This document shows positions 32,561 to 46,984 of a stretch of DNA of 64,000 bases, in pieces (within the stretch, counting starts at the first letter, position 1; each line of letters begins with the position of its first letter). Where the stretch lies: the sequence record ON075799; one strand, 5' to 3'. The position numbers were made by a program, and so were the translations under genes. Under the pieces are notes generated by a model that was given only the letters and a program-made list of their open reading frames with translations, searched no databases and had not been told where the DNA came from. This DNA is from Escherichia phage vB_EcoM_TH18.

Positions 32561-33575
32561 GGGAGGATTATCGAATCCTTGTATTCAAGGTTGGACGCAA
32601 CGCCAACCCCCGCACCACTACGTGCTGCTGCATGTCACCATGCAGAGTAGACTATATCACCACCCACACATAATGGGTGCTTCGCTTTTCGAACGCCATT
32701 AGCTTGCGATCTACTCCCTTGCGGGATAGTCGTTGAACTACATTACCATTCATAGTTGTTTGAGATATAGATGTAAGTTTTTCTATCTTTTATTCTTCTA
32801 ACAAGATTAAAACTAACACCCCATTTTTTAGATATCTTATTAATGCTTAGGATACCGTCTCTCAGATCTTCACATATCCCTATAACTTTGGATTCACTAA
32901 TTCTGTTGGAAGAAGGAACCATCCTGAAATTAAACTCTTTAGAAATGTCTGGGTAGACTCTCCCAGCTTTGATACTACTAACCACAGTCTGCCCAATACC
33001 AAACATCTCACTGATATCCTTTACTCTAGCACCCTGCTCAAGTAATCTGCATATCTCAAGGGCAGTGTTATCATCAAGAGGCCTGTAACTGTTTACATAA
33101 GACTTCTTAAGCCCTATTTCATGTGCGTGATGTGTGCTTTCCTTTGCAGTTGTCCACTCAAGATTCCACGCTGCGTTATTAAGTTTGTTTCCATCTAAAT
33201 GGTTCACTTGAGTTTTTGTATCAGGGCTATCATTCTCGACAAAAGCAAAAGCAATAACCCTATGGACAAGAACTTGAAACTTTTTACCATCCTCACACAA
33301 CGTTAACATTGCATAGCCAGTTTTCTTATGGACATTAGGATGTAAAAATTTGTGGGAATACAAACTATAAATTCTTCCATCATACGTCGCACAATAATGG
33401 GAATACCCTAAAAATCCTAAATTTTTCATCTCAAACATTCTCCCTACTACAGTTTCGGAAAAGTAATTATAGCTGCTGATTGCCCTTATACAAAGGGTTT
33501 CCCAGCAATTAACGAAGTTATTCGACATGCATTACTGCATGAAGCCACTATTCTTTTAATGGTTGCGGAAATGAA
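32561..33575 (-). mobile_element. Group I intron 2 carrying an HNH homing endonuclease ORF (boundaries approximate)
   Basis: Minus-strand reading shows P-like AAUUGCUGGGAAA, P5 hairpin, Q-like AAUCAGCAGC upstream of ORF, and R-like GUUCAACGACUAUC plus S-like GAUAUAGUCU downstream, giving P7 pairing GACUA/UAGUC. Confidence 0.65.
32743..33438 (-). CDS. HNH homing endonuclease (232 aa from MFEMKNLGF…)
   Basis: Typical N-terminus (KNLGFLGY…YDGRIYS) and HNH motif VNHLDGNKLNNAAWNLEW; SD AGGGAGA upstream of Met; lies inside intron between P/Q and R/S elements. Confidence 0.75.
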   Translation of the reverse strand: MFEMKNLGFLGYSHYCATYDGRIYSLYSHKFLHPNVHKKTGYAMLTLCEDGKKFQVLVHRVIAFAFVENDSPDTKTQVNHLDGNKLNNAAWNLEWTTAKESTHHAHEIGLKKSYVNSYRPLDDNTALEICRLLEQGARVKDISEMFGIGQTVVSSIKAGRVYPDISKEFNFRMVPSSNRISESKVIGICEDLRDGILSINKISKKWGVSFNLVRRIKDRKTYIYISNNYEW

Positions 33576-33914
33576 GGAAAATGAAAGCGGTTTAGGCTTT
33601 CTTTTCTCATCCTTGCCATCCCAATACTTTTCAATTAATTCTTGCTCTGAGTCACCCCAGATAAATTCTCCGTCACGTCTTATAAACCATCTAATCACCC
33701 CATCTCGTTCAGGTATAGGATATCCCTCATCGTCTAAATACCAAGAAATCAACTCCTTAATCTTATGATCTGGATCAGGGTTACAAGAGATAACCATCCT
33801 GCTCGGATATTTAGAGTTTGAACGTAGACGAGATATCAGATAATCTATCTGTGACCATGTGAATTGTGTTCCCTCATCAAAGCCGATGAAGGTATACTGC
33901 AACTTATTGTCCCC
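33572..33914 (-). CDS. terL: Terminase large subunit, exon 2 (Walker B region; boundaries approximate)
   Basis: Hydrophobic stretch ending in FIGFDEGT (Walker B-like), then ISCNP (coupling-motif-like); no ATG start; flanked by intron cores. Confidence 0.6.
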
Positions 33915-34141: not shown

Positions 34142-35512
34142 CTATTCACCCTGATGATCTAATTTGTTATTCTCATACTCCATGTGTCTCCACAACACCT
34201 TTGCCCCAGATGGGAAAATTGCTTCCAGAGCTTTCTCCCTGAACTTCGGCTTCCATTCCTTATCGAGTTGCAAATAAATACTTTTTGCTGTATCAAAAAG
34301 CCCACCTGCACCTGTCAATTGAGGTGTTGTCCTACGAAACATTATACATGCTGTCTGCGGGTCATCGACATAAGCAAGCGGCATCAATTGTAGGAGATAT
34401 GATTTTCCACTATTCCCAGTGACAACCACACAATCTTCTAGTCTGGTAACAAAGAAACCTGTTTGTGTTACAAAGCAGTATTTAAACCCATCCGTAGGTA
34501 TAAACTCTTTAAACTCAGCTTTTCTGTCTTTATTAGCCAGTGACCTTAATCCTTTTCCTCTAGCCATAATATTAACAGTATAACTGTCCTTTCCACTTCT
34601 TGTATCATGGTTTATGGTGGTATTATAACCAAGAGAAGATCCTACAAACTGAACAAAATCAGCGTTCATCTTATGGACAGTAAAATATCTACCTGTAAAG
34701 CTGTTATGTGTTTTACCGCCATATGGCTTACAAAAAGAACCATCCCAATGAAAAATCTCATCAAGTATTATCTCCAGTTGTTCATTTGAACACTGATAGT
34801 ATTTCTCTGTAAATTTTTTATCAGGATATTTAGGCCATACAATAACCTCGTACTGTTCCCCAGTGGTATATCTTTCACTGGGTTTTGATCCTCTATCTTC
34901 ATATCTTAATCCAAACTTTTTACAAAGTTCGATTAAGCGGTCATATTTACGCTTTTTAGCAAAGCGCATCTGTGTATAATTATCTTTCCCTTCTTTAACA
35001 ACTCTCCCATCAGCCATGACAGCAACCTGAAGCCGTAATTCCCCTTCTGTCATGTCTATCCCAGGACCATCATAGTTAAATGTAGTTATGAACTTACCTG
35101 TCCAACCTTTTTTAACAGAGTTGTTATGTCTTTCTGCCACTTCAGAAAAAGAAAGTGTTCTTGGCTGTGATTTATAGTCTGGTTTATAAATCACAGTATG
35201 TTCGTCAGATAGCTCTTGACAAATGCCATTACCTTCTATTCTTGTAAGTTTTTCGCAAGGGAGTTTAACAAACTCTAAAGGGGGGATAAATTTAGCCTCC
35301 CCAGTGGCTTTGTCATATTGCAGAATGTCCTGCCCTGACCATTCTGATATCTTAATCCAGCCAGATGGTGTCAACACCTCGTGGTCTTTAGACAAACACC
35401 CGGCGGCCCCACCAATTATTAGAATTTGGGCTTTACTCTCCAAAATCATTTTTTGCTTAGGACTGGCAGGTCCAAATACTTTACTCAAAAGACCTCCATA
35501 TTTTCTATTCAT
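34142..35512 (-). CDS. terL: Terminase large subunit, exon 1 (N-terminal ATPase segment including in-frame intein)
   Basis: N-extein ends IIGGAAG; C-extein resumes SGKSYLL, restoring Walker A GGAAGSGKS. Confidence 0.7.
   Translation of the reverse strand: MNRKYGGLLSKVFGPASPKQKMILESKAQILIIGGAAGCLSKDHEVLTPSGWIKISEWSGQDILQYDKATGEAKFIPPLEFVKLPCEKLTRIEGNGICQELSDEHTVIYKPDYKSQPRTLSFSEVAERHNNSVKKGWTGKFITTFNYDGPGIDMTEGELRLQVAVMADGRVVKEGKDNYTQMRFAKKRKYDRLIELCKKFGLRYEDRGSKPSERYTTGEQYEVIVWPKYPDKKFTEKYYQCSNEQLEIILDEIFHWDGSFCKPYGGKTHNSFTGRYFTVHKMNADFVQFVGSSLGYNTTINHDTRSGKDSYTVNIMARGKGLRSLANKDRKAEFKEFIPTDGFKYCFVTQTGFFVTRLEDCVVVTGNSGKSYLLQLMPLAYVDDPQTACIMFRRTTPQLTGAGGLFDTAKSIYLQLDKEWKPKFREKALEAIFPSGAKVLWRHMEYENNKLDHQGE
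34412..35398 (-). mobile_element. Intein (about 329 aa) inserted in the terminase Walker A P-loop
   Basis: Begins CLSKDHEVLTPSGWIKISEW (intein block A-like), ends …VVTGN followed by Ser; size suggests nested endonuclease, with weak LAGLIDADG-like segments (AVMADGRV, ILDEIFHWDGS). Confidence 0.65.
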
Positions 35513-35583: not shown

Positions 35584-35877
35584 CTATTTATCTGAAGTAA
35601 ATATTGTCTTTACATACTGTTGTAGCGTTCTTAATTTCATACGATCTTCAGCAGCCTTAATGTTGTTTTTCTTGATCACCTCTATAGCATCCGCATTACT
35701 AAGACCACCTGGCAATTTTTCAGGTTCTTTCGGTGGTATCATAGCTTCAGCGGGTGGTCTTGCTAAGATATCGCTTATTATGATCTCTTTTGCAACAGGA
35801 ACAACTCTCTCAGGCGGTGAAGTGCACCCTGTTAACATCAATAATAGAAAAGGAACCATGATGACACACTTTTTCAT
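35584..35877 (-). CDS. o-spanin-like outer-membrane lipoprotein (97 aa)
   Basis: Signal peptide with lipobox-like LTGC, Pro-rich mature part; starts 4 nt inside upstream i-spanin-like gene. Confidence 0.55.
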   Translation of the reverse strand: MKKCVIMVPFLLLMLTGCTSPPERVVPVAKEIIISDILARPPAEAMIPPKEPEKLPGGLSNADAIEVIKKNNIKAAEDRMKLRTLQQYVKTIFTSDK

Positions 35878-36275
35878 TTCACCCCCAGACTATCGTTATA
35901 AATATCAACAAACTGGTTATCTAGGCAAACCTGTTTTCCTGCTTGTGTTTTGCTATAACTTTTAACCTTTTTATCAAGGTCTTCTTTCAGTTGGTTATTA
36001 ATTTCTCTCTCTTTCACCAACATGGTTGACAACTCATCGATCTTATCCTGCTGTTGTTTTTTAAAAGCGTTGTTGTGATCTCTAACTTGCTGGTTAATCC
36101 TCTCCCATTTAAGGTCAGTATCGCTGACACCTGCGTTGTAGGATGATGTTAACTGGTCATTATACCAATGCTTTATCTCCACAACACCCCAAACGAGCAT
36201 CACACAACACAAAACGACACCTATCTGTTTTATGTTCTTAGAAAAGAAAGTTAACAGCGTTTTAAACCATATCAT
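35874..36275 (-). CDS. i-spanin-like protein (133 aa)
   Basis: N-terminal transmembrane helix followed by charged coiled-coil region. Confidence 0.5.
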   Translation of the reverse strand: MIWFKTLLTFFSKNIKQIGVVLCCVMLVWGVVEIKHWYNDQLTSSYNAGVSDTDLKWERINQQVRDHNNAFKKQQQDKIDELSTMLVKEREINNQLKEDLDKKVKSYSKTQAGKQVCLDNQFVDIYNDSLGVK

Positions 36276-37609
36276 GATATATCACCATCACACTCAATAA
36301 TATTTTCAATCTTCAACGTTGTTTTTCTGTTTTCAGAAATACACAGACTATTAAAATTGCTAATATCGTACTGGATCTTAGATGTATCGCTTACAGAAAC
36401 CTCTAACAGAACTGCTCCAGGCTGATATATTGTAAACCCATAACTATCTCCCTCCCCGTTCTCACACAGAATTTTGTACTCTCCTCTTGCCTCCGCTTCA
36501 TCAACATAAAGTCTGAGAGTTGGAAAATTATTTGCTATATCTTCTTTGTGAAGCCCAACATGATGTTTATCTTTTGTTGGCATCATGAGATAGAAAACTT
36601 CCGCAGGACAAACTCCATATAGTTTTGTAAAATATTTCCTACCTGTTGCTTTTCTTAATCTTTGGAAAATACTGAACATATTAACTTTAGATACATCATT
36701 AAACGGCAACGGTTGCACAGGGGTAACATTTTTGTCTACCTGCTGGCAACAAGATTCTAATCTGTCTAGGAACTCAACCAAAGAATCAAGTGAAAACTGT
36801 TTTGTCTCATCAAAGATATCTGACAGTTTCATTCCGTACATCCCGCTAAGATGTGACTTTGCCGATTCCCAACTTTCTATCTGAAGGCTGGCAATAGCCA
36901 TAGCCAGTTTCATTGTCTCTTTTTTCGAAATTGTATAGCCACGAGATTTGTATTTTTCAGATCTCAAAAGTGATATAATCGGGTATTCAGTCTTATGATT
37001 TACAACTAAGACTCTTTGAGCAATATGTTTTAAGAAATTGCTATCAAATTCCCACACACCATCCTTGAAGTTAAAAGCGCCCATGTTGATTGTAAAATCA
37101 ACTTTGCTAAAGATATCTTCTGTTGTTTTGAACACATCCACAGCAACACACTGTAATACAGGATCCTGCCCAAAGTACAGCGTTACGCTCTTATCTGTCA
37201 CACCAACTCTGGTAAGATTTGGGAGATCATCTTCTTCAAGATGAAAATTTTCACATCTGGACAAAGGGTCTGTGAAACATAAATGCGTATCCTGCCCATT
37301 ATCAAGGTTATAAAAATACCTAAAAGTTCTTTTTTGATTTTCCCATCCGTTTGTCTGTGCGGTTAAATCATACTTTCCACTTAAAAGATTTTTATCCATC
37401 ATGTACGCAATGAATATCTCAAGATTTTCCCAAGATGGGAAATACAAATCAAGATCGTTGACTTTACTATTAGAGAACAAAGAGGTTATTGCCCCGCCAG
37501 CTATCTTAACATCCAGCTTCGACAATAAATCATAAACACCTTTTGGTATAAAAGAGCACAAAATGTCGTACTCTCTTTGAAAATCTTCTTTTTTGAAAAC
37601 ATGCAACAT
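36272..37609 (-). CDS. Pol-beta-superfamily nucleotidyltransferase-motif protein (about 445 aa from MLHVFKK…)
   Basis: Motif GGAITSLFSNSKVNDLDLY has the same G-G-x12-D-x-D spacing as the CCA-adding enzyme head-domain signature GGAVRD…DRD. Confidence 0.5.
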   Translation of the reverse strand: MLHVFKKEDFQREYDILCSFIPKGVYDLLSKLDVKIAGGAITSLFSNSKVNDLDLYFPSWENLEIFIAYMMDKNLLSGKYDLTAQTNGWENQKRTFRYFYNLDNGQDTHLCFTDPLSRCENFHLEEDDLPNLTRVGVTDKSVTLYFGQDPVLQCVAVDVFKTTEDIFSKVDFTINMGAFNFKDGVWEFDSNFLKHIAQRVLVVNHKTEYPIISLLRSEKYKSRGYTISKKETMKLAMAIASLQIESWESAKSHLSGMYGMKLSDIFDETKQFSLDSLVEFLDRLESCCQQVDKNVTPVQPLPFNDVSKVNMFSIFQRLRKATGRKYFTKLYGVCPAEVFYLMMPTKDKHHVGLHKEDIANNFPTLRLYVDEAEARGEYKILCENGEGDSYGFTIYQPGAVLLEVSVSDTSKIQYDISNFNSLCISENRKTTLKIENIIECDGDIS

Positions 37610-37814
37610 CTTAGCTATCCTTAAGTACAAAACAAGATGCGTAGAGACTAGCACATAAAGAAAAACCCCGCAAGAGGCGGGGTTAGGCATAGGAGAGGAG
37701 ATTGATTGGATTATTATTATAGTTATTTGAGAAAAGTGGCGAAGGAACCTTTACATGTCGAGAGTGTCTTACCGTTTACTCAGCCACGACCCTCCTTAGT
37801 GTCCACTTTAATTC

Positions 37815-37893
37815 TGGTTGCGAGTATTGGAATCGAACCTGCAATCTTCAGGGTATGAACCTAACATGGTAAATCCATTTCCACCAATCTGCA
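37815..37893 (-). tRNA. tRNA-like element, degenerate (possible anticodon CAU); likely pseudo-tRNA
   Basis: T-loop-like GGUUCGAUUCC and D-arm found, but acceptor and T stems pair poorly in hand fold. Confidence 0.25.
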
Positions 37894-37899
37894 ATAATT

Positions 37900-37975
37900 T
37901 GGTGTGACGGACAGGATTCGAACCTGTGACCACCTAGTCTTCAGCAAGGCACTCTACCAACTGAGTTACCGTCAC
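37900..37975 (-). tRNA. tRNA-Phe (anticodon GAA)
   Basis: Hand-folded cloverleaf: acceptor GUGACGG/CCGUCAC, T-arm ACAGG-UUCGAAU-CCUGU, anticodon loop CUGAAGA, CCA encoded. Confidence 0.75.
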
Positions 37976-37980
37976 ATAAT

Positions 37981-38057
37981 TGGTGGGCGATGAGGGACTC
38001 GAACCCCCAAAATTCAGGTTCTAAGCCTGACATGTATACCAATTCCATCAATCGCCC
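37981..38057 (-). tRNA. tRNA with anticodon UAG (Leu by anticodon) but class I architecture
   Basis: Acceptor GGGCGAU/AUCGCCC, anticodon arm UCAGG-CUUAGAA-CCUGA, 5-nt variable loop, A73, CCA encoded. Confidence 0.6.
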
Positions 38058-38305
38058 ATCTATATTAACAGTTATGGTTTTCCACGATACACAGAAATAG
38101 TTTTCCCATTAGCATTGATAACATAAGCGGTCTGATCCTCAGACAAAAACACTTTTTGATCAATGCCGGAAATAGCTATAGACTTTTGATGAGCACAATA
38201 CCCAACAATTTTCCCACAAAAAATTTGTTCATCATTTGGAGAGACGACTTTAACTGTTAACATGGTATCCTCTGTACATTTCTGCTTTGATATGTTTATG
38301 TTTGT

Positions 38306-38383
38306 TGGTCTGTCCGGTTGGATTTGAACCAACGACCTGGTCATCCCAAGTGACCCGCGCTACCCAAGCTGCGCTACGGACAG
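38306..38383 (-). tRNA. tRNA-Pro (anticodon UGG)
   Basis: Acceptor CUGUCCG/CGGACAG, anticodon loop CUUGGGA, T-arm GUUGG-UUCAAAU-CCAAC. Confidence 0.75.
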
Positions 38384-38467
38384 AGAAATGTAGATTTTAA
38401 TTGTCCCAGAATCTACTAACTGGTATCGCTGGCTAGGTGATATCTGTGACTTGATTAAGTCAAGAAT

Positions 38468-38559
38468 TGGCGGTTCCTGAAGGATTCGAACCTTCGGTGG
38501 GGAGATTCATTCCCAACGGCTTAACAGGCCGTCACCATCGACCACTCGGTCAAAGAACC
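38468..38559 (-). tRNA. Class II (long variable arm) tRNA with anticodon GUU (Asn by anticodon)
   Basis: 92 nt; acceptor GGUUCUU/AGGAACC, D-arm with CCGAGUGG, anticodon arm ACGGC-CUGUUAA-GCCGU, 20-nt variable arm, T-arm GAAGG-UUCGAAU-CCUUC, G73, CCA. Confidence 0.6.
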
Positions 38560-38568
38560 TGAATATTT

Positions 38569-38645
38569 TGGTGGATCTGGTTGGGGTCGAACCAACAATC
38601 TCTCGATTAAAAGTCGAGTGACTTAAACCATTTGGCTACAAATCC
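38569..38645 (-). tRNA. tRNA-Lys (anticodon UUU)
   Basis: Acceptor GGAUUUG/CAGAUCC, anticodon arm CUCGA-CUUUUAA-UCGAG. Confidence 0.75.
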
Positions 38646-38878
38646 GTTAAATTATCTTTAAAATAGCTAATTACTCGCACATAATTAGCTATACGCAACA
38701 ACTCTCCAAGGAGAGCACACTAATGATCGATTACGATTATATGACTAAATTTAGACCATCATAAGTGTTTGGCTTACGCCAGTAAAGAGCGGACTGCTCT
38801 GGGGTATCGGTAAGATGGTTGCAGCCATCTACCGAAAAATCACACCAAGCAACTAAACAAGCTACATTAAAGATAACT

Positions 38879-38967
38879 TGGAGGAGGCTGACAGAATCGA
38901 ACTGTCACCATATCTCTACAGCGGGACTGGGTTCAAACCAGCTTGTGCACCATGCACCCCAGCCTCC
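38879..38967 (-). tRNA. tRNA-Ser (anticodon UGA), class II
   Basis: Acceptor GGAGGCU/AGCCUCC, anticodon arm GCUGG-UUUGAAC-CCAGU, long variable arm, T-arm GACAG-UUCGAUU-CUGUC. Confidence 0.7.
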
Positions 38968-39038
38968 AAAGATAGCCTCTGCCGAGGATATACACCCAAC
39001 AAAGGAGGCGCTCAGGTCAGAAGAAATCTGAGCCTTAA

Positions 39039-39132
39039 TGGAGGAAGATGCCAGACTTGAACTGGCACACCCATTTCTGGGTTACTATCTCCTTAGCAGG
39101 GAGATCCCTTACCAAATTAGGGTTAATCTTCC
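39039..39132 (-). tRNA. tRNA-Ser (anticodon GCU), class II
   Basis: Acceptor GGAAGAU/AUCUUCC, anticodon arm UCUCC-CUGCUAA-GGAGA, long variable arm, T-arm GCCAG-UUCAAGU-CUGGC. Confidence 0.7.
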
Positions 39133-39153
39133 AATACCTTAGTAATTAAAAAC

Positions 39154-39243
39154 TGGTGGAGAAGGAGAGAATCGAACTCTCAAGCCGTTTTACCAGTCAG
39201 CACATTTCCAATGTGCTTTCGTCGCCAATCGATTTGCTTCTCC
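39154..39243 (-). tRNA. tRNA-Ser (anticodon GGA), class II
   Basis: Acceptor GGAGAAG/CUUCUCC, anticodon arm GCACA-UUGGAAA-UGUGC, T-arm GAGAG-UUCGAUU-CUCUC; D-arm irregular. Confidence 0.65.
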
Positions 39244-39252
39244 GTTTTAACT

Positions 39253-39328
39253 TGGCAGGGGATGGTTGATTCGAACAACCGATCACGGGGTCAAAGCCCG
39301 TTGCATTAGGCCACTATGCTAATCCCCT
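39253..39328 (-). tRNA. tRNA-Gln (anticodon UUG)
   Basis: Acceptor AGGGGAU/AUCCCCU, D-stem GCAU/AUGC, anticodon arm ACGGG-CUUUGAC-CCCGU. Confidence 0.75.
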
Positions 39329-39331
39329 TTT

Positions 39332-39409
39332 GCACGAGAGTGAGGAATAGAACCTCTTAGTCACTGGTTTTGGAGGCCAGCCTTCACCCAGTGAAGTTAC
39401 GCTACTCTC
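39332..39409 (-). tRNA. tRNA-like remnant (probable pseudo-tRNA)
   Basis: Acceptor-like GAGAGU/ACUCUC and T-arm-like GAGG-UUCUAUU-CCUC, but no canonical anticodon arm. Confidence 0.2.
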
Positions 39410-39417
39410 ATTAAAAA

Positions 39418-39975
39418 CTATTTTCGAAAAGGACTTATGAAAAATGCCAACATCACTCTCTCTCTTGAAAAAGCTCTGTCTTCAGGAACCACACTCTTCA
39501 GTTTCCAACCGACATAAATTCGCCAGTAAAATTGTTTTCCAAACAATCTAAAAGACGGGACAAACGCGAATACACCCCACGCATTGTCATTCCACATCAA
39601 CAAATAGCCTTGTTGGTTATCCTCCACATCAGAGCTTACATGGAGGTTTCCTTTCCACTTTGTCACAGATGTGATTTCACGTCCAAGTACGTGATAGGAG
39701 AAATTGTAGGCTTTATTTCTCCACAACCAAGCAACTCGTTGTAGGTAAACACCAAAACTTCCTATTTTACGGACTTCTTCCCATCTCTCTATGTGTCCTC
39801 TATCACCGTCTATAGGATTATCATATGTCTCCATCCACCTGAAAATATAAGGCAGATGCCCTGTCTTCTCATTATAGAACGGAACAACAAAAGGAGCCAG
39901 AATAACACAGAGAACCGACATAACTGGGTCAAGAGGTGCTAACAGGATCCACGATAAATATTTTAAGTATCTCAT
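39418..39975 (-). CDS. Hypothetical membrane-associated protein (185 aa) embedded in tRNA cluster
   Basis: Hydrophobic N-terminal helix; Trp-rich. Confidence 0.35.
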   Translation of the reverse strand: MRYLKYLSWILLAPLDPVMSVLCVILAPFVVPFYNEKTGHLPYIFRWMETYDNPIDGDRGHIERWEEVRKIGSFGVYLQRVAWLWRNKAYNFSYHVLGREITSVTKWKGNLHVSSDVEDNQQGYLLMWNDNAWGVFAFVPSFRLFGKQFYWRIYVGWKLKSVVPEDRAFSRERVMLAFFISPFRK

Positions 39976-40327
39976 GCAGGATCAAGCCTAGATATAATGT
40001 ACTGGTTTAAATCTGAATATGGGAAGATACTTTCAAAGATAACCTGTTTAAATCTGAAGCCGCACAAACCGAAAAGTACCTTCTGACACTCACCAAAAGA
40101 GCAATCTTTACCAACTTTTATCACAACCGTATCGGCAATCTGCACACTTTCTATCTCTTTAGATTCATGATGCCGTACTATGATTACTTTAGAAACCATC
40201 ATACTCGTCCATATTAAAGCCTTCTACTAAAGATAGTAGATGTCTAGGGTTGGACCGCAAACGCAACCCCATGGAATTTGTTACGGTCTTCAGTTGACCC
40301 AAGCGGATTTCATTGACATCTTTTAAC

Positions 40328-40402
40328 TGGAGCATCCAGAGGGTATCGAACCCTCGACTTCAGCTTGGAAGGCTGTAGTTTTCCCAATTAAACTATGGAT
40401 GC
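40328..40402 (-). tRNA. tRNA-Gly (anticodon UCC)
   Basis: Acceptor GCAUCCA/UGGAUGC, anticodon loop CUUCCAA, T-arm GAGGG-UUCGAUA-CCCUC. Confidence 0.7.
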
Positions 40403-40407
40403 ATATT

Positions 40408-40483
40408 TGGTGGGAGTGGTAGGCTCTGCCCCTACGTCCTCTCGATTATCGGTCGAGCGATCTACTAACTGATCTACACTCCC
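40408..40483 (-). tRNA. tRNA-shaped gene, anticodon GAU (Ile by anticodon), with non-canonical D-, anticodon- and T-loops
   Basis: All four stems perfectly paired, but T-loop is GGCAGAG (no UUC), D-loop AGUUAGUA lacks GG, anticodon loop CCGAUAA has C33. Confidence 0.55.
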
Positions 40484-40551
40484 AAACTGTACTGGCCCAA
40501 CAACCACGATTGGAGGGTATCGTCACACATCAAAGCCAGTACAGTTTTAGT

Positions 40552-40641
40552 TGGTGTGCCGTGATAGAGTCGAACTACCCGAGTCCCTTTCGAGACAGGA
40601 GATTTACAGTCTCCCCCGCTACCCCTACGGTCTAACGACAC
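40552..40641 (-). tRNA. tRNA-Tyr (anticodon GUA), class II
   Basis: Acceptor GUGUCGU/ACGGCAC, anticodon arm GGAGA-CUGUAAA-UCUCC, long variable arm, A73. Confidence 0.7.
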
Positions 40642-40642
40642 A

Positions 40643-40990
40643 TTAACCTTGTTTGAATTGAACAATATCCGTCGAGAACGGTTTAGCTGCCTTAATAGGT
40701 GCTTTTTCTGAGTTATCTTTTTCGAGTAACTCTTCGTTTTCCTCATCAAAGTAATCAGAAAGCATCTGCTCACCTTTCTCAATAACATAACGAGCTATAT
40801 TTTCTCTGATATTGTCTTTTGTATTCACATTCTTCATCAAATCCCTAAGAACCTGATGAGCTTCAGGAATCATTGCAATCAGATTCGTTTTTAAATCTAG
40901 GATATTTTTCTCTAACTGAATTGCATTAGATTCCTCTTTCAGAGGACGACCTTTTCCTCTTCTACGTTTTGTAAGCTGCTTAGTAGCCAT
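40643..40990 (-). CDS. Hypothetical basic/acidic protein (115 aa from MATKQL…)
   Basis: ORF trimmed to Met downstream of a consensus sigma70 promoter; longer listed ORF would overlap tRNA-Cys. Confidence 0.4.
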   Translation of the reverse strand: MATKQLTKRRRGKGRPLKEESNAIQLEKNILDLKTNLIAMIPEAHQVLRDLMKNVNTKDNIRENIARYVIEKGEQMLSDYFDEENEELLEKDNSEKAPIKAAKPFSTDIVQFKQG

Positions 40991-41009
40991 TTTAAAACCC
41001 CACTTAATG

Positions 41010-41038
41010 ATATTATCAAATAAAAACATATCTGTCAA
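41010..41038 (-). promoter_or_regulatory. Consensus sigma70-like promoter on minus strand (TTGACA, 17-nt spacer, TAATAT)
   Basis: Minus-strand reading TTGACAgatatgtttttatttgaTAATAT, about 20 nt upstream of ATG at 40990. Confidence 0.55.
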
Positions 41039-41075
41039 GTGGTATTTTAACATATTTACCAAGAAATTGAAAGTT

Positions 41076-41152
41076 TGGAGCACGGTGTCGGACTTGAACC
41101 GACATATATCTGTTTTGCAGACAGATCCGTAACCAAATTCCAGCAACCGTGC
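41076..41152 (-). tRNA. tRNA-Cys (anticodon GCA)
   Basis: Acceptor GCACGGU/ACCGUGC, anticodon arm UCUGU-CUGCAAA-ACAGA, T-arm GUCGG-UUCAAGU-CCGAC. Confidence 0.7.
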
Positions 41153-41228
41153 AATAAGTACCCCAGGTAGAGAACCTATAGAGTGGGTCTTACGAGCCGC
41201 GCTGACGATTCTCAAGTTGGGGTTAATC

Positions 41229-41305
41229 TGGTCGAGGAGACAGGATTCGAACCTGTGACCTACGGCTTAGAAGGCCGCTGCTCTATCCAACTGAGCTACA
41301 CCCCG
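41229..41305 (-). tRNA. tRNA-Arg (anticodon UCU)
   Basis: D-arm GCUC-AGUUGGAUA-GAGC, anticodon arm GCGGC-CUUCUAA-GCCGU, T-arm ACAGG-UUCGAAU-CCUGU; acceptor has one U-U mismatch. Confidence 0.7.
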
Positions 41306-41505
41306 AAAATAAGAATGCTTTATAGTGTATGGTTACTCAACCTCACTCCAACTTCCACAGTTGGTGCTCTACGAGCATGACTACGTTTGAAATCAACGTT
41401 GCGCACCGATAGCTTTCTCACGCATTGTATGCCTCATTCCCAACAAATGCTGATCAGACATTTATATCGAATAATATAAGCTAATACACTATAAAACAAA
41501 CTTGT

Positions 41506-41602
41506 GGCTGGGTGATGGAATCGAACCACCTATGTATTCAACGGCTTCCCCGTCTATTTTCAGGATTATAAATCCTCGCCCTTGCCAAAGGGCTTACCCA
41601 GC
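41506..41602 (-). tRNA. Atypical 97-nt tRNA-like gene (possible anticodon UAU) with about 30-nt extra segment
   Basis: Canonical acceptor GCUGGGU/ACCCAGC, D-arm GCCC-UUUGGCAA-GGGC, T-arm GGUGG-UUCGAUU-CCAUC; anticodon region is a 4-bp stem with loop UUUAUAA followed by 30 extra nt; CCA not encoded. Confidence 0.35.
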
Positions 41603-41604
41603 AT

Positions 41605-41679
41605 TGGTGCTCGCAGCAGGTTTCGAACCTGCAACCCCCTGCTTACAAGGCAGGTGCTCTACCGTTGAGCTATACGAGC
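41605..41679 (-). tRNA. tRNA-Thr (anticodon UGU)
   Basis: Acceptor GCUCGUA/UGCGAGC, anticodon arm CCUGC-CUUGUAA-GCAGG, T-arm GCAGG-UUCGAAA-CCUGC. Confidence 0.75.
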
Positions 41680-42044
41680 AATAAGACATTGCTTCCGATT
41701 AACAGCCTTGAGGCTTTACAGACCATATCTTGTGAGCCATAACCTGTGCCAAGGATTTCAGATGATAAACGAAATTTTATCTTTCAAGAGTCAACTTTCA
41801 AGTTTCATCTTTTACATTTAACCATTGACCTTTATTGTATGAACTTTTACTTAGTGGAAACAACAAGGCATCTTCGTGTGCCTCGCTGCATCTATGTCCT
41901 GTATTATCCTCATACATATACGATACATGGTGGGGGATATTTAACCTCCAACCCCCAGGAGGCAAGATGATGTAAACTTCGTTAATCAAAAGCAATGTTT
42001 TAAATTTCAAAACAAAGGAACGATAATGATATTATCAGAGCCTT

Positions 42045-42692
42045 TTAGAGAGAGTGCTCAATCTCAATTTCTGTCTTAGCGTTTGACTCAGACAACGCAA
42101 AATCAACGTTAGACAAGAAATCTTCAATCTCTTCTTCAAGAGAACGAATCTTAGAAGCCAGTTCAAGAGGATCCACAACCGATGGTGTGTTCATCATTCG
42201 AATAGGAGCTTCCACAGTCTTAATCTGCTCTGCATCTGGCGCTTTATCACGTTGGATATATGGCGCTCTTGCATTTTCAAGTTTATCTTCCAGAGATTTT
42301 TCTTCTTTTGCCAGAAGAAGCTGTGCAGAAGCACGCTGTGCACAAAGTTTGTTTAACAACTCTTGTTTAAAGCAAATCGTCCGTTTGCGTTCGATTGCCT
42401 CAGCAACTGTCATAGACACATTACCAATTTTGACAATTGTCTCAGCATTAGACTTAACAATTTTTGCTTTCAGTTCATCACGCACTGCCAAGAGGTCTTG
42501 CAGACTTTGATAGTCGTTGATCGCAGATTTCTTAAAATCATCAACAGAGCCGATATAACCCGGAATCTTACAATTATTCTCAGTTCCTTTTGCAATCTTA
42601 ATACAATCAAGATTGTAGATACGCTTATTGATCTTATCTTCAATTTTAGAGATAGAAGCAAGTGCACGAGTTACGGAAATCTTAGTAGACAT
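42045..42692 (-). CDS. Hypothetical protein (215 aa)
   Basis: ORF with coiled-coil-like charged regions. Confidence 0.4.
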   Translation of the reverse strand: MSTKISVTRALASISKIEDKINKRIYNLDCIKIAKGTENNCKIPGYIGSVDDFKKSAINDYQSLQDLLAVRDELKAKIVKSNAETIVKIGNVSMTVAEAIERKRTICFKQELLNKLCAQRASAQLLLAKEEKSLEDKLENARAPYIQRDKAPDAEQIKTVEAPIRMMNTPSVVDPLELASKIRSLEEEIEDFLSNVDFALSESNAKTEIEIEHSL

Positions 42693-43033
42693 GCGATCTC
42701 TCCTATGTAAATCAGCTTTGATAAAGTAACTATCCAGAAAAACAAAAACTATGTCAAGAAAAATTTTAATCTTTTACAGCATCTTTTATAGAATCACAAA
42801 GATCTTGAACAACATCAGATGTCGGTGACAAAATCATCTCGTCGGCTGCTGCTATAGCATCTGATGCTAAATCAACAAACGGAGTTGTTACCGCAGAAGT
42901 CACTTCAACAGCCGTTATTGTTACTTCGCTTGCAATCTTAAGCAAAGATCCTATCATAATCTCAACCCTCCTGAATATCCGTGATTCCCTTTATTTAACG
43001 ACGCTGGCTCACGGTGGCACTCTCGTCAATAAA

Positions 43034-43357
43034 CTATTTTTTAGTTTTCTTACCGTTTTCTACAGAAATGCTTGTTTTCTGTTTCGCTTCTCGTTCGCGC
43101 TTTGTTTTCCCAGTGCGAATACGATATGAAGCAGAAATAACTTCACCACCAATGACACGAGACACAGATTCGTAATACATTTCAGTATTACCGTCTTCAT
43201 CTTTGCGTTTTTTCAGAACTGCTACAGTTTGCGTTTTACCACCAAGGCGCACATCGTGCGGTGCAGAATGTGTCTGCGTGGATTTTGATCCAAACTGAAA
43301 AGGTTGCTTTATCGCCTCGATAGCTGACACCTTTTTAGCAGACTGTTTCTTAGCCAT
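43034..43357 (-). CDS. Hypothetical basic protein (about 107 aa from MAKKQSAKK…)
   Basis: Lys/Arg-rich small protein. Confidence 0.4.
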   Translation of the reverse strand: MAKKQSAKKVSAIEAIKQPFQFGSKSTQTHSAPHDVRLGGKTQTVAVLKKRKDEDGNTEMYYESVSRVIGGEVISASYRIRTGKTKREREAKQKTSISVENGKKTKK

Positions 43358-43409
43358 TAAGTTTTCTCCTCCGAAAACAATAAACATAGTTTATTTCGTG
43401 TGCCACATT

Positions 43410-43486
43410 TGGTGGCCCCTGCTGGACTTGAACCAGCGACCAAGCGATTATGAGTCACCTGCTCTATCCAACTGAGCTAAGGGGCC
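43410..43486 (-). tRNA. tRNA-Met (anticodon CAU; elongator-type or lysidine-modified Ile2 not distinguishable)
   Basis: Acceptor GGCCCCU/AGGGGCC with G1-C72, anticodon loop CUCAUAA, T-arm GCUGG-UUCAAGU-CCAGC. Confidence 0.75.
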
Positions 43487-44395: not shown

Positions 44396-46111
44396 TTAAA
44401 GCTGTGATAAGGCTCTTTGGCGAATTTCTTCAAGATCCTCATCCACAAGCAGCTTACCATTAACAAAAACTGTTCTAAGCTCGTTATCATGGTCAGATAC
44501 TTGGTTAATACCAAGATTATCTACCAGCTTCAACTCGCCATCATCACCACGAATAACTTTAACAAAACCTTTCGCAGATTTCTTCCCAAGATCAGTCTTA
44601 GGCTCTTTTACGACCATTACTTGTCTGCCATCAATCACAGCACCAGTAGCTTTTACAGCCATCCCAAGAGAATCACGGGTTGTATATTGCGTTGTATAAG
44701 ACCCTACACCAAACACAATGTTACTGGAAGCAAACCCTCGTTCTTCAAGGCGCTCAAAGATCTCTTTAGCACGGGAGATTGTGATAGAGTCTCCGTAGAT
44801 TAAACCAACATGGCTATCAAGAACTTTGTAACCCAAAGAGTTTACACTACCACCAAAGATTTCCCACAAGCATTGTACAGCACCCTTAACTTCCTCTTTT
44901 GTCAGATAATTTGTAAATTCATCACCTGTCAAAGATTTCCAATCTACGAGGTTGCCTTCCGAATCTCGCATCCATGAAGTGTCTCTGGACATCTCGTATA
45001 AAGTGACATATTTGCCATTTTTAAACAGCACAGCATCCATGTCACAGCACTGCCCCGTTGCCCATTCTTCCTGAGAGCACACGCGATAACCAGCAATGAT
45101 GTGCTCTGGGATCCCACTGTCAGGTCGGAAGACCAGCTTGCCATCACGAGACATAATCTCATCTTTCAGGATTTTTGCTGCCTGTGTAATGATTGCCCAA
45201 AAATCATAGCTGTCAGCGACGTATGAAGCATAACCTGATGGGAAAATCTCTGTCACATAACGCTTTAAGAACTCAACTTCAGCACGAAAACGTGCTTCAT
45301 CAAGCGGCATATCAGGATTTTCCTGCTGGATACGCTCAACAATAAAACCAATGTTCGTTGTCGCTACGCTATGCTCAGATGCGGGAATAGACCCAGCAAC
45401 AAAGCGACCTTTCATGTTGTAATAGCGATTTGCGTAAACAATCGCTGGAATTGTATCTGTGCCCATTGAGCTAATCAGTTGCCCAAATTCGCTCTGTGCT
45501 GCGTCATGTGTTCCAGCTTCACCACGGTATGCAAAACAATGGTTCTGGAAAGGAACATGATCGTTGTTATCACATGTTTTCTTTGCCCACAGTTCTGATA
45601 GTTTACGGTATTGCCAGAAAGTCGTTGCCGTGGTAATTGTCTTCCAAGTCTCCGATGAGATCACGCTCTCAAGGAAGTTCGGCAGCCAGTAAAAATCAGG
45701 ATGCGTGTTCTGAATCGTGAACATGGGAACCTGAACAGGAACAAGAGTTCCTTCAGGCAAAGCCCTAATTTCAATTGGGAGATAACCAAGGTCATGCAAT
45801 TTCTCAAAACCCCAAGTTTCAACAGCATCCTTCCCAATGCTCAAATCACAAATCTCTTTGTAATCCTGAATCGCCTTTTCTTTCGGTAAAGCGAAGAAAT
45901 TATTATTAAACATGTCGATCAGGAACCACTTGATAAATCCCTGAAGACCTGCAAACATCACACGATGGTCATCATCTGCAAAGTGTACAAAGTGTTTCAC
46001 ATTGCGTGGGGTCATGTTGTCTTGAACAAACTGTGAACGTCTATCGTACATCGAGATGTGACTTGGTTTATAAAAATCTGCGAACAGCAATGGACTTTCT
46101 TTGTGAAGCAT
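44396..46111 (-). CDS. Nicotinamide phosphoribosyltransferase-like protein (NAMPT family; possible Namat-type) (571 aa)
   Basis: Family assignment by overall recognition and size, not by a single diagnostic motif; immediately downstream of and co-oriented with PRPS-like gene. Confidence 0.6.
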   Translation of the reverse strand: MLHKESPLLFADFYKPSHISMYDRRSQFVQDNMTPRNVKHFVHFADDDHRVMFAGLQGFIKWFLIDMFNNNFFALPKEKAIQDYKEICDLSIGKDAVETWGFEKLHDLGYLPIEIRALPEGTLVPVQVPMFTIQNTHPDFYWLPNFLESVISSETWKTITTATTFWQYRKLSELWAKKTCDNNDHVPFQNHCFAYRGEAGTHDAAQSEFGQLISSMGTDTIPAIVYANRYYNMKGRFVAGSIPASEHSVATTNIGFIVERIQQENPDMPLDEARFRAEVEFLKRYVTEIFPSGYASYVADSYDFWAIITQAAKILKDEIMSRDGKLVFRPDSGIPEHIIAGYRVCSQEEWATGQCCDMDAVLFKNGKYVTLYEMSRDTSWMRDSEGNLVDWKSLTGDEFTNYLTKEEVKGAVQCLWEIFGGSVNSLGYKVLDSHVGLIYGDSITISRAKEIFERLEERGFASSNIVFGVGSYTTQYTTRDSLGMAVKATGAVIDGRQVMVVKEPKTDLGKKSAKGFVKVIRGDDGELKLVDNLGINQVSDHDNELRTVFVNGKLLVDEDLEEIRQRALSQL

Positions 46112-46174: not shown

Positions 46175-46984
46175 TTAAAAATTTTCTGTCCAGTCGTAGT
46201 ACGCATAGATTTCGTCAACGCCACCGTTGAGAATAAATTCTTTCCCACGAGAGAAAATCCCATGCGTGACATACAAGATAACACGTTTAGCACCAGCAGC
46301 TTTCAAGGCTTGAGCTAAGTTTGTAAACGTAAACCCACCATCGCAGATATCATCAACAATCAGGCACATCTTCCCATCGACATCACCAAACACTGTTGTG
46401 CCTGTGATTGCCCCTGTTCCCACATCACGGATTTTACCAGCTTCAACCACAGATAGTTCCAAGGCATCAGCTACCTTCTGGGTCTTCTTGCGTGCACCTG
46501 CATCTGGAGCAACCAACACAAGCGATTCGTCCGTAAGCAGATCAAAATCAAACTTCATGTTCAAGAACAATTCAGTCTGAGAACGAATTTTCACGTTATC
46601 AAGCAGTGCTGCGGATACGTCACTGTGTGGGTCATCGACGATGACTTTGTGGAAACCCAGCGAGTTAATCATTGTGGCAAAGACTTTCACCGACAGAGCT
46701 TCACCAGGGTTCATAACTCGGTCTTGTCGAGCATACGGGATGTACGGCAGGTGTAAAACCTTTTCCACACCAACATCCAAATTGCCAAGACGATTGACTG
46801 CATCAACAAGCAACGCAAGACACATCACATCTTGGGAGTGCTTAATGCGAGCGAAGATATCCACAAAACCAATCGAACCCTTAGGGATATAGTGCATATC
46901 GATCTTCACCTGCTCCTCACCACCACTGAAGGTAAAATGGTCAACTGGAACATGCAACTTGTTCAAACTCAAACGAATATTCAT
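46175..46984 (-). CDS. Ribose-phosphate pyrophosphokinase-like protein (PRPP synthetase family; possible Adps-type) (269 aa)
   Basis: PRPS signatures PYIPYARQDR, VLVAPDAGARKK and PRPP-binding loop LIVDDICDGGFT. Confidence 0.75.
   Translation of the reverse strand: MNIRLSLNKLHVPVDHFTFSGGEEQVKIDMHYIPKGSIGFVDIFARIKHSQDVMCLALLVDAVNRLGNLDVGVEKVLHLPYIPYARQDRVMNPGEALSVKVFATMINSLGFHKVIVDDPHSDVSAALLDNVKIRSQTELFLNMKFDFDLLTDESLVLVAPDAGARKKTQKVADALELSVVEAGKIRDVGTGAITGTTVFGDVDGKMCLIVDDICDGGFTFTNLAQALKAAGAKRVILYVTHGIFSRGKEFILNGGVDEIYAYYDWTENF

Follow-up and report, generated by a model that had tools for sequence, protein, structure and literature searches.

A predicted Gad2-family nucleotidyltransferase encoded behind the tRNA array of an Avunavirus genome

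Gad2 and its homologue in the Avunavirus genome

Few anti-phage systems are as common in bacteria as Gabija. Knockout of Gad2 in the Bacillus phage SPbetaL7 turns it into a Gabija-sensitive phage, a Gad2 homologue of a B. laterosporus prophage likewise blocks Gabija, and AlphaFold pointed to a nucleotidyltransferase domain in Gad2 (bioRxiv 10.1101/2023.05.01.538930), the mechanism of which was still given as unknown in a review of February 2026 (PMC12904381). Vequintavirinae-like Erwinia phages have already been scored as gad2-positive, and gad2 and NARP2 showed perfect co-occurrence in that survey (PMC13480210). The 64,000 nucleotides analyzed here (the window) come from an Avunavirus (Vequintavirinae) phage of Escherichia coli and encode a homologue of these phage proteins that abolish the immunity conferred by GajA and GajB. 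The region is 100% identical to that of phage 18-1-2 and 87% identical to that of phage Av-05, and in both records the gene is labelled “hypothetical protein”. Judged by its sequence, the 445-aa product adds to the known Gad2 family a member that had not been annotated before.

PF26128.2 is annotated in the identical protein P0001 and in each of the 75 homologues from the homologue search, the accession PF26128 being Gad2 (Gabija anti-defence 2) by name; this assignment stems from precomputed annotation, the Pfam copy searched directly having no PF26128 model. Direct sequence searches of Pfam, NCBIfam, PADLOC, and PDB, both with the single sequence and with the family profile, returned nothing. 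Compared with the annotated Gad2 of SPbetaL7 (WIT28108.1), BLASTP gave an E-value of 1e-30 with 37% identity over 167 aa, with motif A aligned separately at 42%, and the family profile aligned to the same protein with an hhalign probability of 100%. The B. laterosporus prophage homologue QDX94674.1 was matched at 36% identity (phmmer E 2e-32, BLASTP 1e-30), and it hits the same set of PHROGs as the window protein, namely families of unknown function and one marginal “nucleotidyltransferase” match. In an exhaustive profile search the Gad2 family comprised 5,709 cluster representatives. Full-length homologues of the window protein are confined to Vequintavirinae, always with spanins alongside, and demonstrable homology to validated Gad2 is limited to the N-terminal ~290 aa. 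On these matches we place the window protein in the Gad2 (PF26128) family. One E. coli-like PcnB variant (P0218) carries precomputed PF26128 and PF01743 together, which lends faint independent support to a kinship of the Gad2 and PolyA_pol models.

The gene and its surroundings

The Gad2-family gene occupies positions 36272..37609 of the minus strand, stop codon included, and runs in the ORF listing from an ATG at 37609 to a TGA at 36272-36274; its product of 445 aa is identical (100%) to P0001, GenBank UDW09836.1. A longer ORF of 472 aa with an upstream ATG at 37690 was dropped, as its first codons make up the hairpin of an intrinsic terminator (37664..37684, minus strand), which the terminator scan describes as an 8-bp stem with six GC pairs followed by TTTCTTT. 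Since the ATG at 37690 falls within this hairpin (37684-37664) and an AAGGA Shine-Dalgarno sequence lies 5' of the ATG at 37609, the 445-aa start can be taken as correct.

On the other side of the terminator lies a tRNA array (37815..43486, minus strand; ARAGORN, Rfam) with 16 tRNAs found by ARAGORN and further tRNA-like elements. As both are minus-strand features, with the higher coordinates belonging to the tRNAs (37815-43486), the gene is located downstream of the array with the terminator in between, and not directly upstream of it as an earlier note made from the sequence had it. The CCA end is encoded in 16 of the 16 ARAGORN tRNAs as well as in an additional Rfam tRNA that ARAGORN missed (40411-40483, minus strand, 53 bits). 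The same note had stated that at least one tRNA-like gene here lacks CCA, which does not apply to these 17 tRNAs, but is correct for two marginal elements of the minus strand that ARAGORN likewise missed, a weak one of 33 bits with a long internal insert and a UAU-like anticodon loop (41506-41602) and a sub-threshold one (39336-39407). Within the array there are also a gene for a DUF7338 protein (39418-39975, minus strand; 7e-65) and several small ORFs.

The order of array and gene is found in nine of 80 viral loci, all of them Vequintavirinae-like, with protein identities of 37-50% and with 13-23 tRNAs immediately preceding the gene, except for the truncated locus L008, which has only two. 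Of the 71 other (non-Vequintavirinae) viral loci, 63 have no tRNA within 6 kb, so that an association with tRNAs was ruled out as a trait of the whole family: tRNA adjacency is an architecture of the Vequintavirinae clade. The array is regarded here only as context of the Gad2-like gene.

Downstream, the stop codon of the Gad2-like gene overlaps with the ATG of an i-spanin gene (35874..36275, minus strand; PHROG Rz-like spanin, 1.8e-47), and this ATGA overlap suggests translational coupling of the two. The operon continues with an o-spanin gene encoding a lipoprotein signal (35584..35877 in the ORF listing, minus strand; PHROG Rz-like spanin, 1e-21) and then with the gene for the large terminase. 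The latter (34142-35512, minus strand, with more pieces at 32743-33902) has an intein-like insertion in the Walker A loop, the junctions of which, marked by slashes, read GGAAG/CLSKDHEVLT...VVVTGN/SGKSYLL; the first terminase piece gave no match in Pfam. In Av-05 the insertion is shorter, about 80 central residues being missing. The terminase of the window is further split downstream by an HNH homing-endonuclease ORF. On the far side of the array, 7-9 kb from the Gad2-like gene, are genes for a nicotinamide phosphoribosyltransferase (NAMPT; 44396-46111, minus strand; NAPRTase family, 2e-28) and a ribose-phosphate pyrophosphokinase-like protein (Prs; 46175-46984, minus strand), i.e., counter-defence genes of the NAD+-reconstitution type.

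Gad2 genes elsewhere have other neighbors. In the B. laterosporus prophage, an RlaP nucleotidyltransferase (PF10127) and an entire CCA-adding enzyme of class II are encoded immediately before the Gad2 homologue (L167 4939-8185), and an RNA ligase 3 kb downstream of it (L167 11261-12169). RlaP also adjoins Gad2 in the contigs L003 (8001-10658), L018, and L047. Together, RNA-repair neighbors occur at ~6 of the ~74 non-Vequintavirinae loci, which is a raw count without background control. RlaP and DUF5662 recur beside Gad2 in unrelated contigs, counted likewise without a background rate.

A CCA-enzyme-like catalytic half and a different C-terminal domain

The N-terminal part of the protein (~aa 1-290; 36740..37609, minus strand) is predicted to form a head/neck domain like that of class II nucleotidyltransferases. 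It contains motif A with the catalytic DxD site (G38 G39 ... D52 x D54), FDFTINMGA with D171, YPIISLLRSEKYKSRGY, and SGMYG, and it has a clade-specific insertion of about 75 aa after motif A (~aa 60-132). Motif A covers aa 38-54, its codons GGAITSLFSNSKVNDLD lie at 37448..37498 of the minus strand, and it was recognized from a regex match at 37498 together with its conservation. The Pol-beta peptide that the earlier note had pointed out, GGAITSLFSNSKVNDLDLY, is indeed found in the 445-aa protein, and its comparison with the CCA head domain is correct with respect to spacing, as 12 residues separate GG and DxD like in E. coli Cca (GGAVRDALLGLPVKDRD). Among the 27,280 residues of stop-free segments in the window, the Pol-beta regex G[GS]x9-13 D-h-[DE]-h matched solely this motif A. 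G38, G39, D52, and D54 are conserved to at least 90% and D171 is invariant in the Gad2 family alignments A1 and A3, and all family-invariant residues are kept in the window protein; the Pol-beta motif GG-x12-DLD is kept throughout more than 5,000 clusters of homologues. In a profile-profile alignment, motifs A, B, and D line up with those of class II enzymes. The window protein is assigned to the Pol-beta superfamily of nucleotidyltransferases, as originally proposed.

The AF2 model (pLDDT 85) matches class II CCA-adding enzymes, the poly(A) polymerase I of E. coli, and FAM46, with Foldseek E-values down to 4e-6. A Cca/PcnB profile aligned to the Gad2 family profile with an hhalign E-value of 9.8e-5 and a probability of 58%, with motif A, the DFTIN core of motif B, and the helix of motif D in register. 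The mapping of motifs onto class II enzymes is based on this alignment, and the class II profile was built via a genome scan for Cca, as the PcnB-seeded search gave only near-identical enterobacterial PcnB. Motif A (GGxVRD...DxD) has its counterpart in GGAITS-x8-DLD with the same 12-residue spacing. The RRD of motif B, which serves ribose recognition, is replaced by KVD in the window protein and by xFD in the family (x[F/V]D taken together), so that nothing but the D and the FTIN behind it is left. EDxxR of motif D, the amino-acid template for C and A, is aligned with the segment EYPIISLLR (YP..S in place of the template), and nothing in the Gad2 family consensus corresponds to its E, D, and R in the hhalign alignment. 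Since the residues selecting CTP or ATP and ribose are gone, the window protein is not expected to add CCA. Furthermore, the HMM search that had been suggested for the CCA-adding and poly(A) polymerase families gave zero matches to PF01743, PF12627, or any CCA or PAP model or chain at E-values up to 10 (Pfam, NCBIfam, PDB; phmmer/hmmsearch). The RNA-binding body and tail domains of class II enzymes are absent, and an ADP-ribosyltransferase (ART)-like domain is predicted in their place. The best homology is to Gad2 (PF26128), a different nucleotidyltransferase family without body and tail, which is defined by inhibiting Gabija, a system that senses DNA ends; this is an outcome that the earlier note itself had named as telling against its reading. 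The catalytic half is therewith a pared-down relative of tRNA CCA-adding enzymes. CD-NTases or cGAS-like enzymes, raised before as an alternative, were not the best match in fold or sequence, and both these and toxins of the MenT/AbiEii type were discarded owing to weak fold scores and an empty PADLOC search.

The C-terminal domain (~aa 306-445; 36275..36694, minus strand) is beta-rich, ends in a clade-conserved GDIS tail, and in the model adopts an ART-like fold, with the RNA 2'-phosphotransferase KptA/Tpt1 among its fold matches. For the B. laterosporus homologue of Gad2, a model with pLDDT 88 has the same two sets of structural neighbors, class II enzymes and the ART fold. The C-terminal domains of the clade and of the rest of the family showed no significant likeness in sequence, the HMM search giving just four close outliers and hhalign a probability of 7.5%, and the common architecture is therefore deduced from the two structure predictions. 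The family consensus LYK..GLYF..LLE is similar to a K-Y-E arrangement; the E position is occupied by E in 62% of members and by K in 22%, and the first position is G in the clade of the window protein. The candidate positions for ART catalysis are thus poorly conserved, and the domain is probably a binding module.

Tails like the C-terminal tip of SSB are present in 22 of 211 Gad2-family proteins (~10%), ranging from P0035 to P0188, e.g., P0062 (...EDDDLPF), P0107 (...EDIPF), and P0134 (...EGIPF). Both tip types occur, D-D-L-P-F of Firmicutes and D-I-P-F of proteobacteria, whereas proteins of the Vequintavirinae clade have a conserved G-[DE]-[ILF]-[ST] at this end instead. By their sequence the tails suggest that their bearers are recruited to SSB-binding proteins or compete for them, and point to partners in DNA replication or repair, which is consistent with the reported action of Gabija at DNA ends.

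Proposed role and comparison with known systems

Taken together, we consider it likely that the window gene encodes a Gad2-family counter-defence enzyme that acts by nucleotidyl transfer through its DxD centre. The predicted build, in which an ART-like domain comes after a class-II-type head and neck that has kept its GG...DxD...D centre intact, fits this role, and the counter-defence function already considered in the earlier note is likely as well, with systems of the Gabija type as the most likely target. During infection, a nucleotide would be attached by the DxD centre to a hydroxyl group of its target. The most probable target is a nucleic-acid 3' end; the Gabija proteins or a small molecule are less probable ones. 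The C-terminal domain may stand in for the tRNA-binding body and tail and provide the binding of target or ligand, the enzyme would not be CCA-adding, and as an outcome the host OLD-family nuclease/helicase system would either not be triggered or be unable to act on phage DNA ends. The transfer step is inferred, since no substrate or product of Gad2 is known (PMC12904381).

Some observations stand against this assignment. A terminator precedes the gene, and spanin and terminase genes are coupled to it, which is untypical compared to the early position of anti-defence genes, and the clade has a C-terminal domain without significant similarity to validated Gad2 as well as the 75-aa insertion. 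With respect to specificity, the validated Gad2 cases concern the Gabija of Bacillus and not that of E. coli, and an Oad2 homologue at 54% identity fails to inhibit OLD, i.e., anti-defence specificity can vanish above the 36-37% identity found here.

Among the other readings, an enzyme modifying RNA or tRNA ends, which is not CCA-specific and counters an activity of OLD-family nucleases (Gabija-like, OLD, PARIS) directed at tRNA within an RNA-repair/tRNA module of the phage, survives best, although we regard it as unlikely. To our knowledge, all characterized members of the class II fold act on RNA 3' ends, and fold matches of this kind were obtained for the window protein, while those of its ART-like domain include KptA/Tpt1; RlaP, the CCA-adding enzyme, and the RNA ligase next to Gad2 elsewhere and the tRNA array in the window point in the same direction. 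As cleavage of tRNA occurs among the OLD-family relatives of GajA, and one resistant tRNA can defeat OLD, an RNA-directed mechanism keeps a low probability. However, Gabija has been described as a system acting on DNA ends and nicking DNA and not on tRNA, the RNA-repair neighbors are restricted to the few loci counted above without background control, and the SSB-like tails in a tenth of the family argue for partners in DNA replication or repair. In its widest form, this reading would make Gad2 enzymes descendants of class II CCA enzymes turned into RNA/tRNA-end modifiers with a Tpt1-like ART module, which defeat Gabija and perhaps other OLD-family nucleases via tRNA or RNA instead of DNA or defence proteins, and which in Vequintavirinae form one counter-defence unit with the tRNA array. 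We hold this to be quite unlikely; if true, there would be an unrecognized RNA component in Gabija immunity.

A further reading is that defence proteins are neutralized directly by nucleotidylylation, e.g., AMPylation of GajA or GajB, or that a nucleotide-derived ligand holds the ATP-gated GajA off. MntA antitoxins, which AMPylate HEPN toxins, provide the model for it, and an enzyme with a conserved active site that inhibits a large protein complex and has an attached ART-like domain, of a type binding NAD or ADP-ribose, would agree with it. On the other side, the fold matches are led by a wide margin by RNA-end transferases, neck domain included, and the ART triad is poorly conserved, with its variable E position and the clade-specific G. 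Binding of Gad2 to GajAB is also not mentioned in PMC10781630. This reading appears decidedly improbable. Finally, a genuine tRNA nucleotidyltransferase, which would add or repair CCA and so mature or repair the tRNAs of the array or of the host, is most improbable, since fold, motif A spacing, the conserved position behind the array, and one weak tRNA-like element without CCA are outweighed by the missing RRD and EDxxR residues and sequence-model matches, by the CCA encoded in the tRNAs, by the cca gene of the host E. coli itself, by the loci without nearby tRNAs, and by the complete separate CCA-adding enzyme adjoining Gad2 in the B. laterosporus prophage, which implies that the two are not redundant.

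On the preferred reading as a Gad2-type counter-defence enzyme, the window gene shows Gad2 to belong firmly to the genome plan of rV5-like phages (Vequintavirinae) of E. coli, Salmonella, Klebsiella, Cronobacter, and Erwinia. Several of the rV5-like groups are being considered for phage therapy, and the gene is thus relevant when the host range on Gabija-positive strains is to be predicted. Clues to the mechanism of Gad2 are its head and neck of the CCA-enzyme type without nucleotide-templating residues and the ART-like domain predicted in both proteins, and further ones are the SSB-like tails and the tRNA arrays, CCA-adding enzyme, RlaP, and RNA ligase near some Gad2 genes.

Among the described proteins compared, the FAM46/TENT5 non-canonical poly(A) polymerases differ in being eukaryotic, without sequence similarity, and without an ART-like domain. 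ART-fold proteins (BC2332-like, KptA/Tpt1, Arr) resemble the predicted C-terminal domain in fold, but their H-Y-E or R-S-E residues are poorly kept in it, and no sequence model matches. With class II CCA-adding enzymes and PAP I (PF01743; T. maritima 3h37, E. coli 3aql), the Gad2-like protein shares the GG-x12-DxD spacing, the motif B core DFTIN(A/M), and, in register, the motif D helix L-R-x-x-(R/K)-(F/Y) (hhalign E ~1e-4). It differs from them by the loss of RR from RRD and of E, D, and R from EDxxR, by a different C-terminal domain instead of body/tail or HD domain, and by the lack of a sequence-model match. Closest are the Gad2 proteins of SPbetaL7 (WIT28108.1) and B. laterosporus (QDX94674.1), which are phage-encoded as well and homologous over the N-terminal ~290 aa with 36-37% identity, the latter also with the same predicted two-domain architecture. 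The window protein deviates from known Gad2 in the 75-aa insertion after motif A, in a C-terminal domain that is not alignable by sequence, in its tail GDIS, and in a G where 75% of the family has K. Unlike in the anti-Gabija locus of SPbeta, the window gene comes after a tRNA array and shows coupling to spanin genes.
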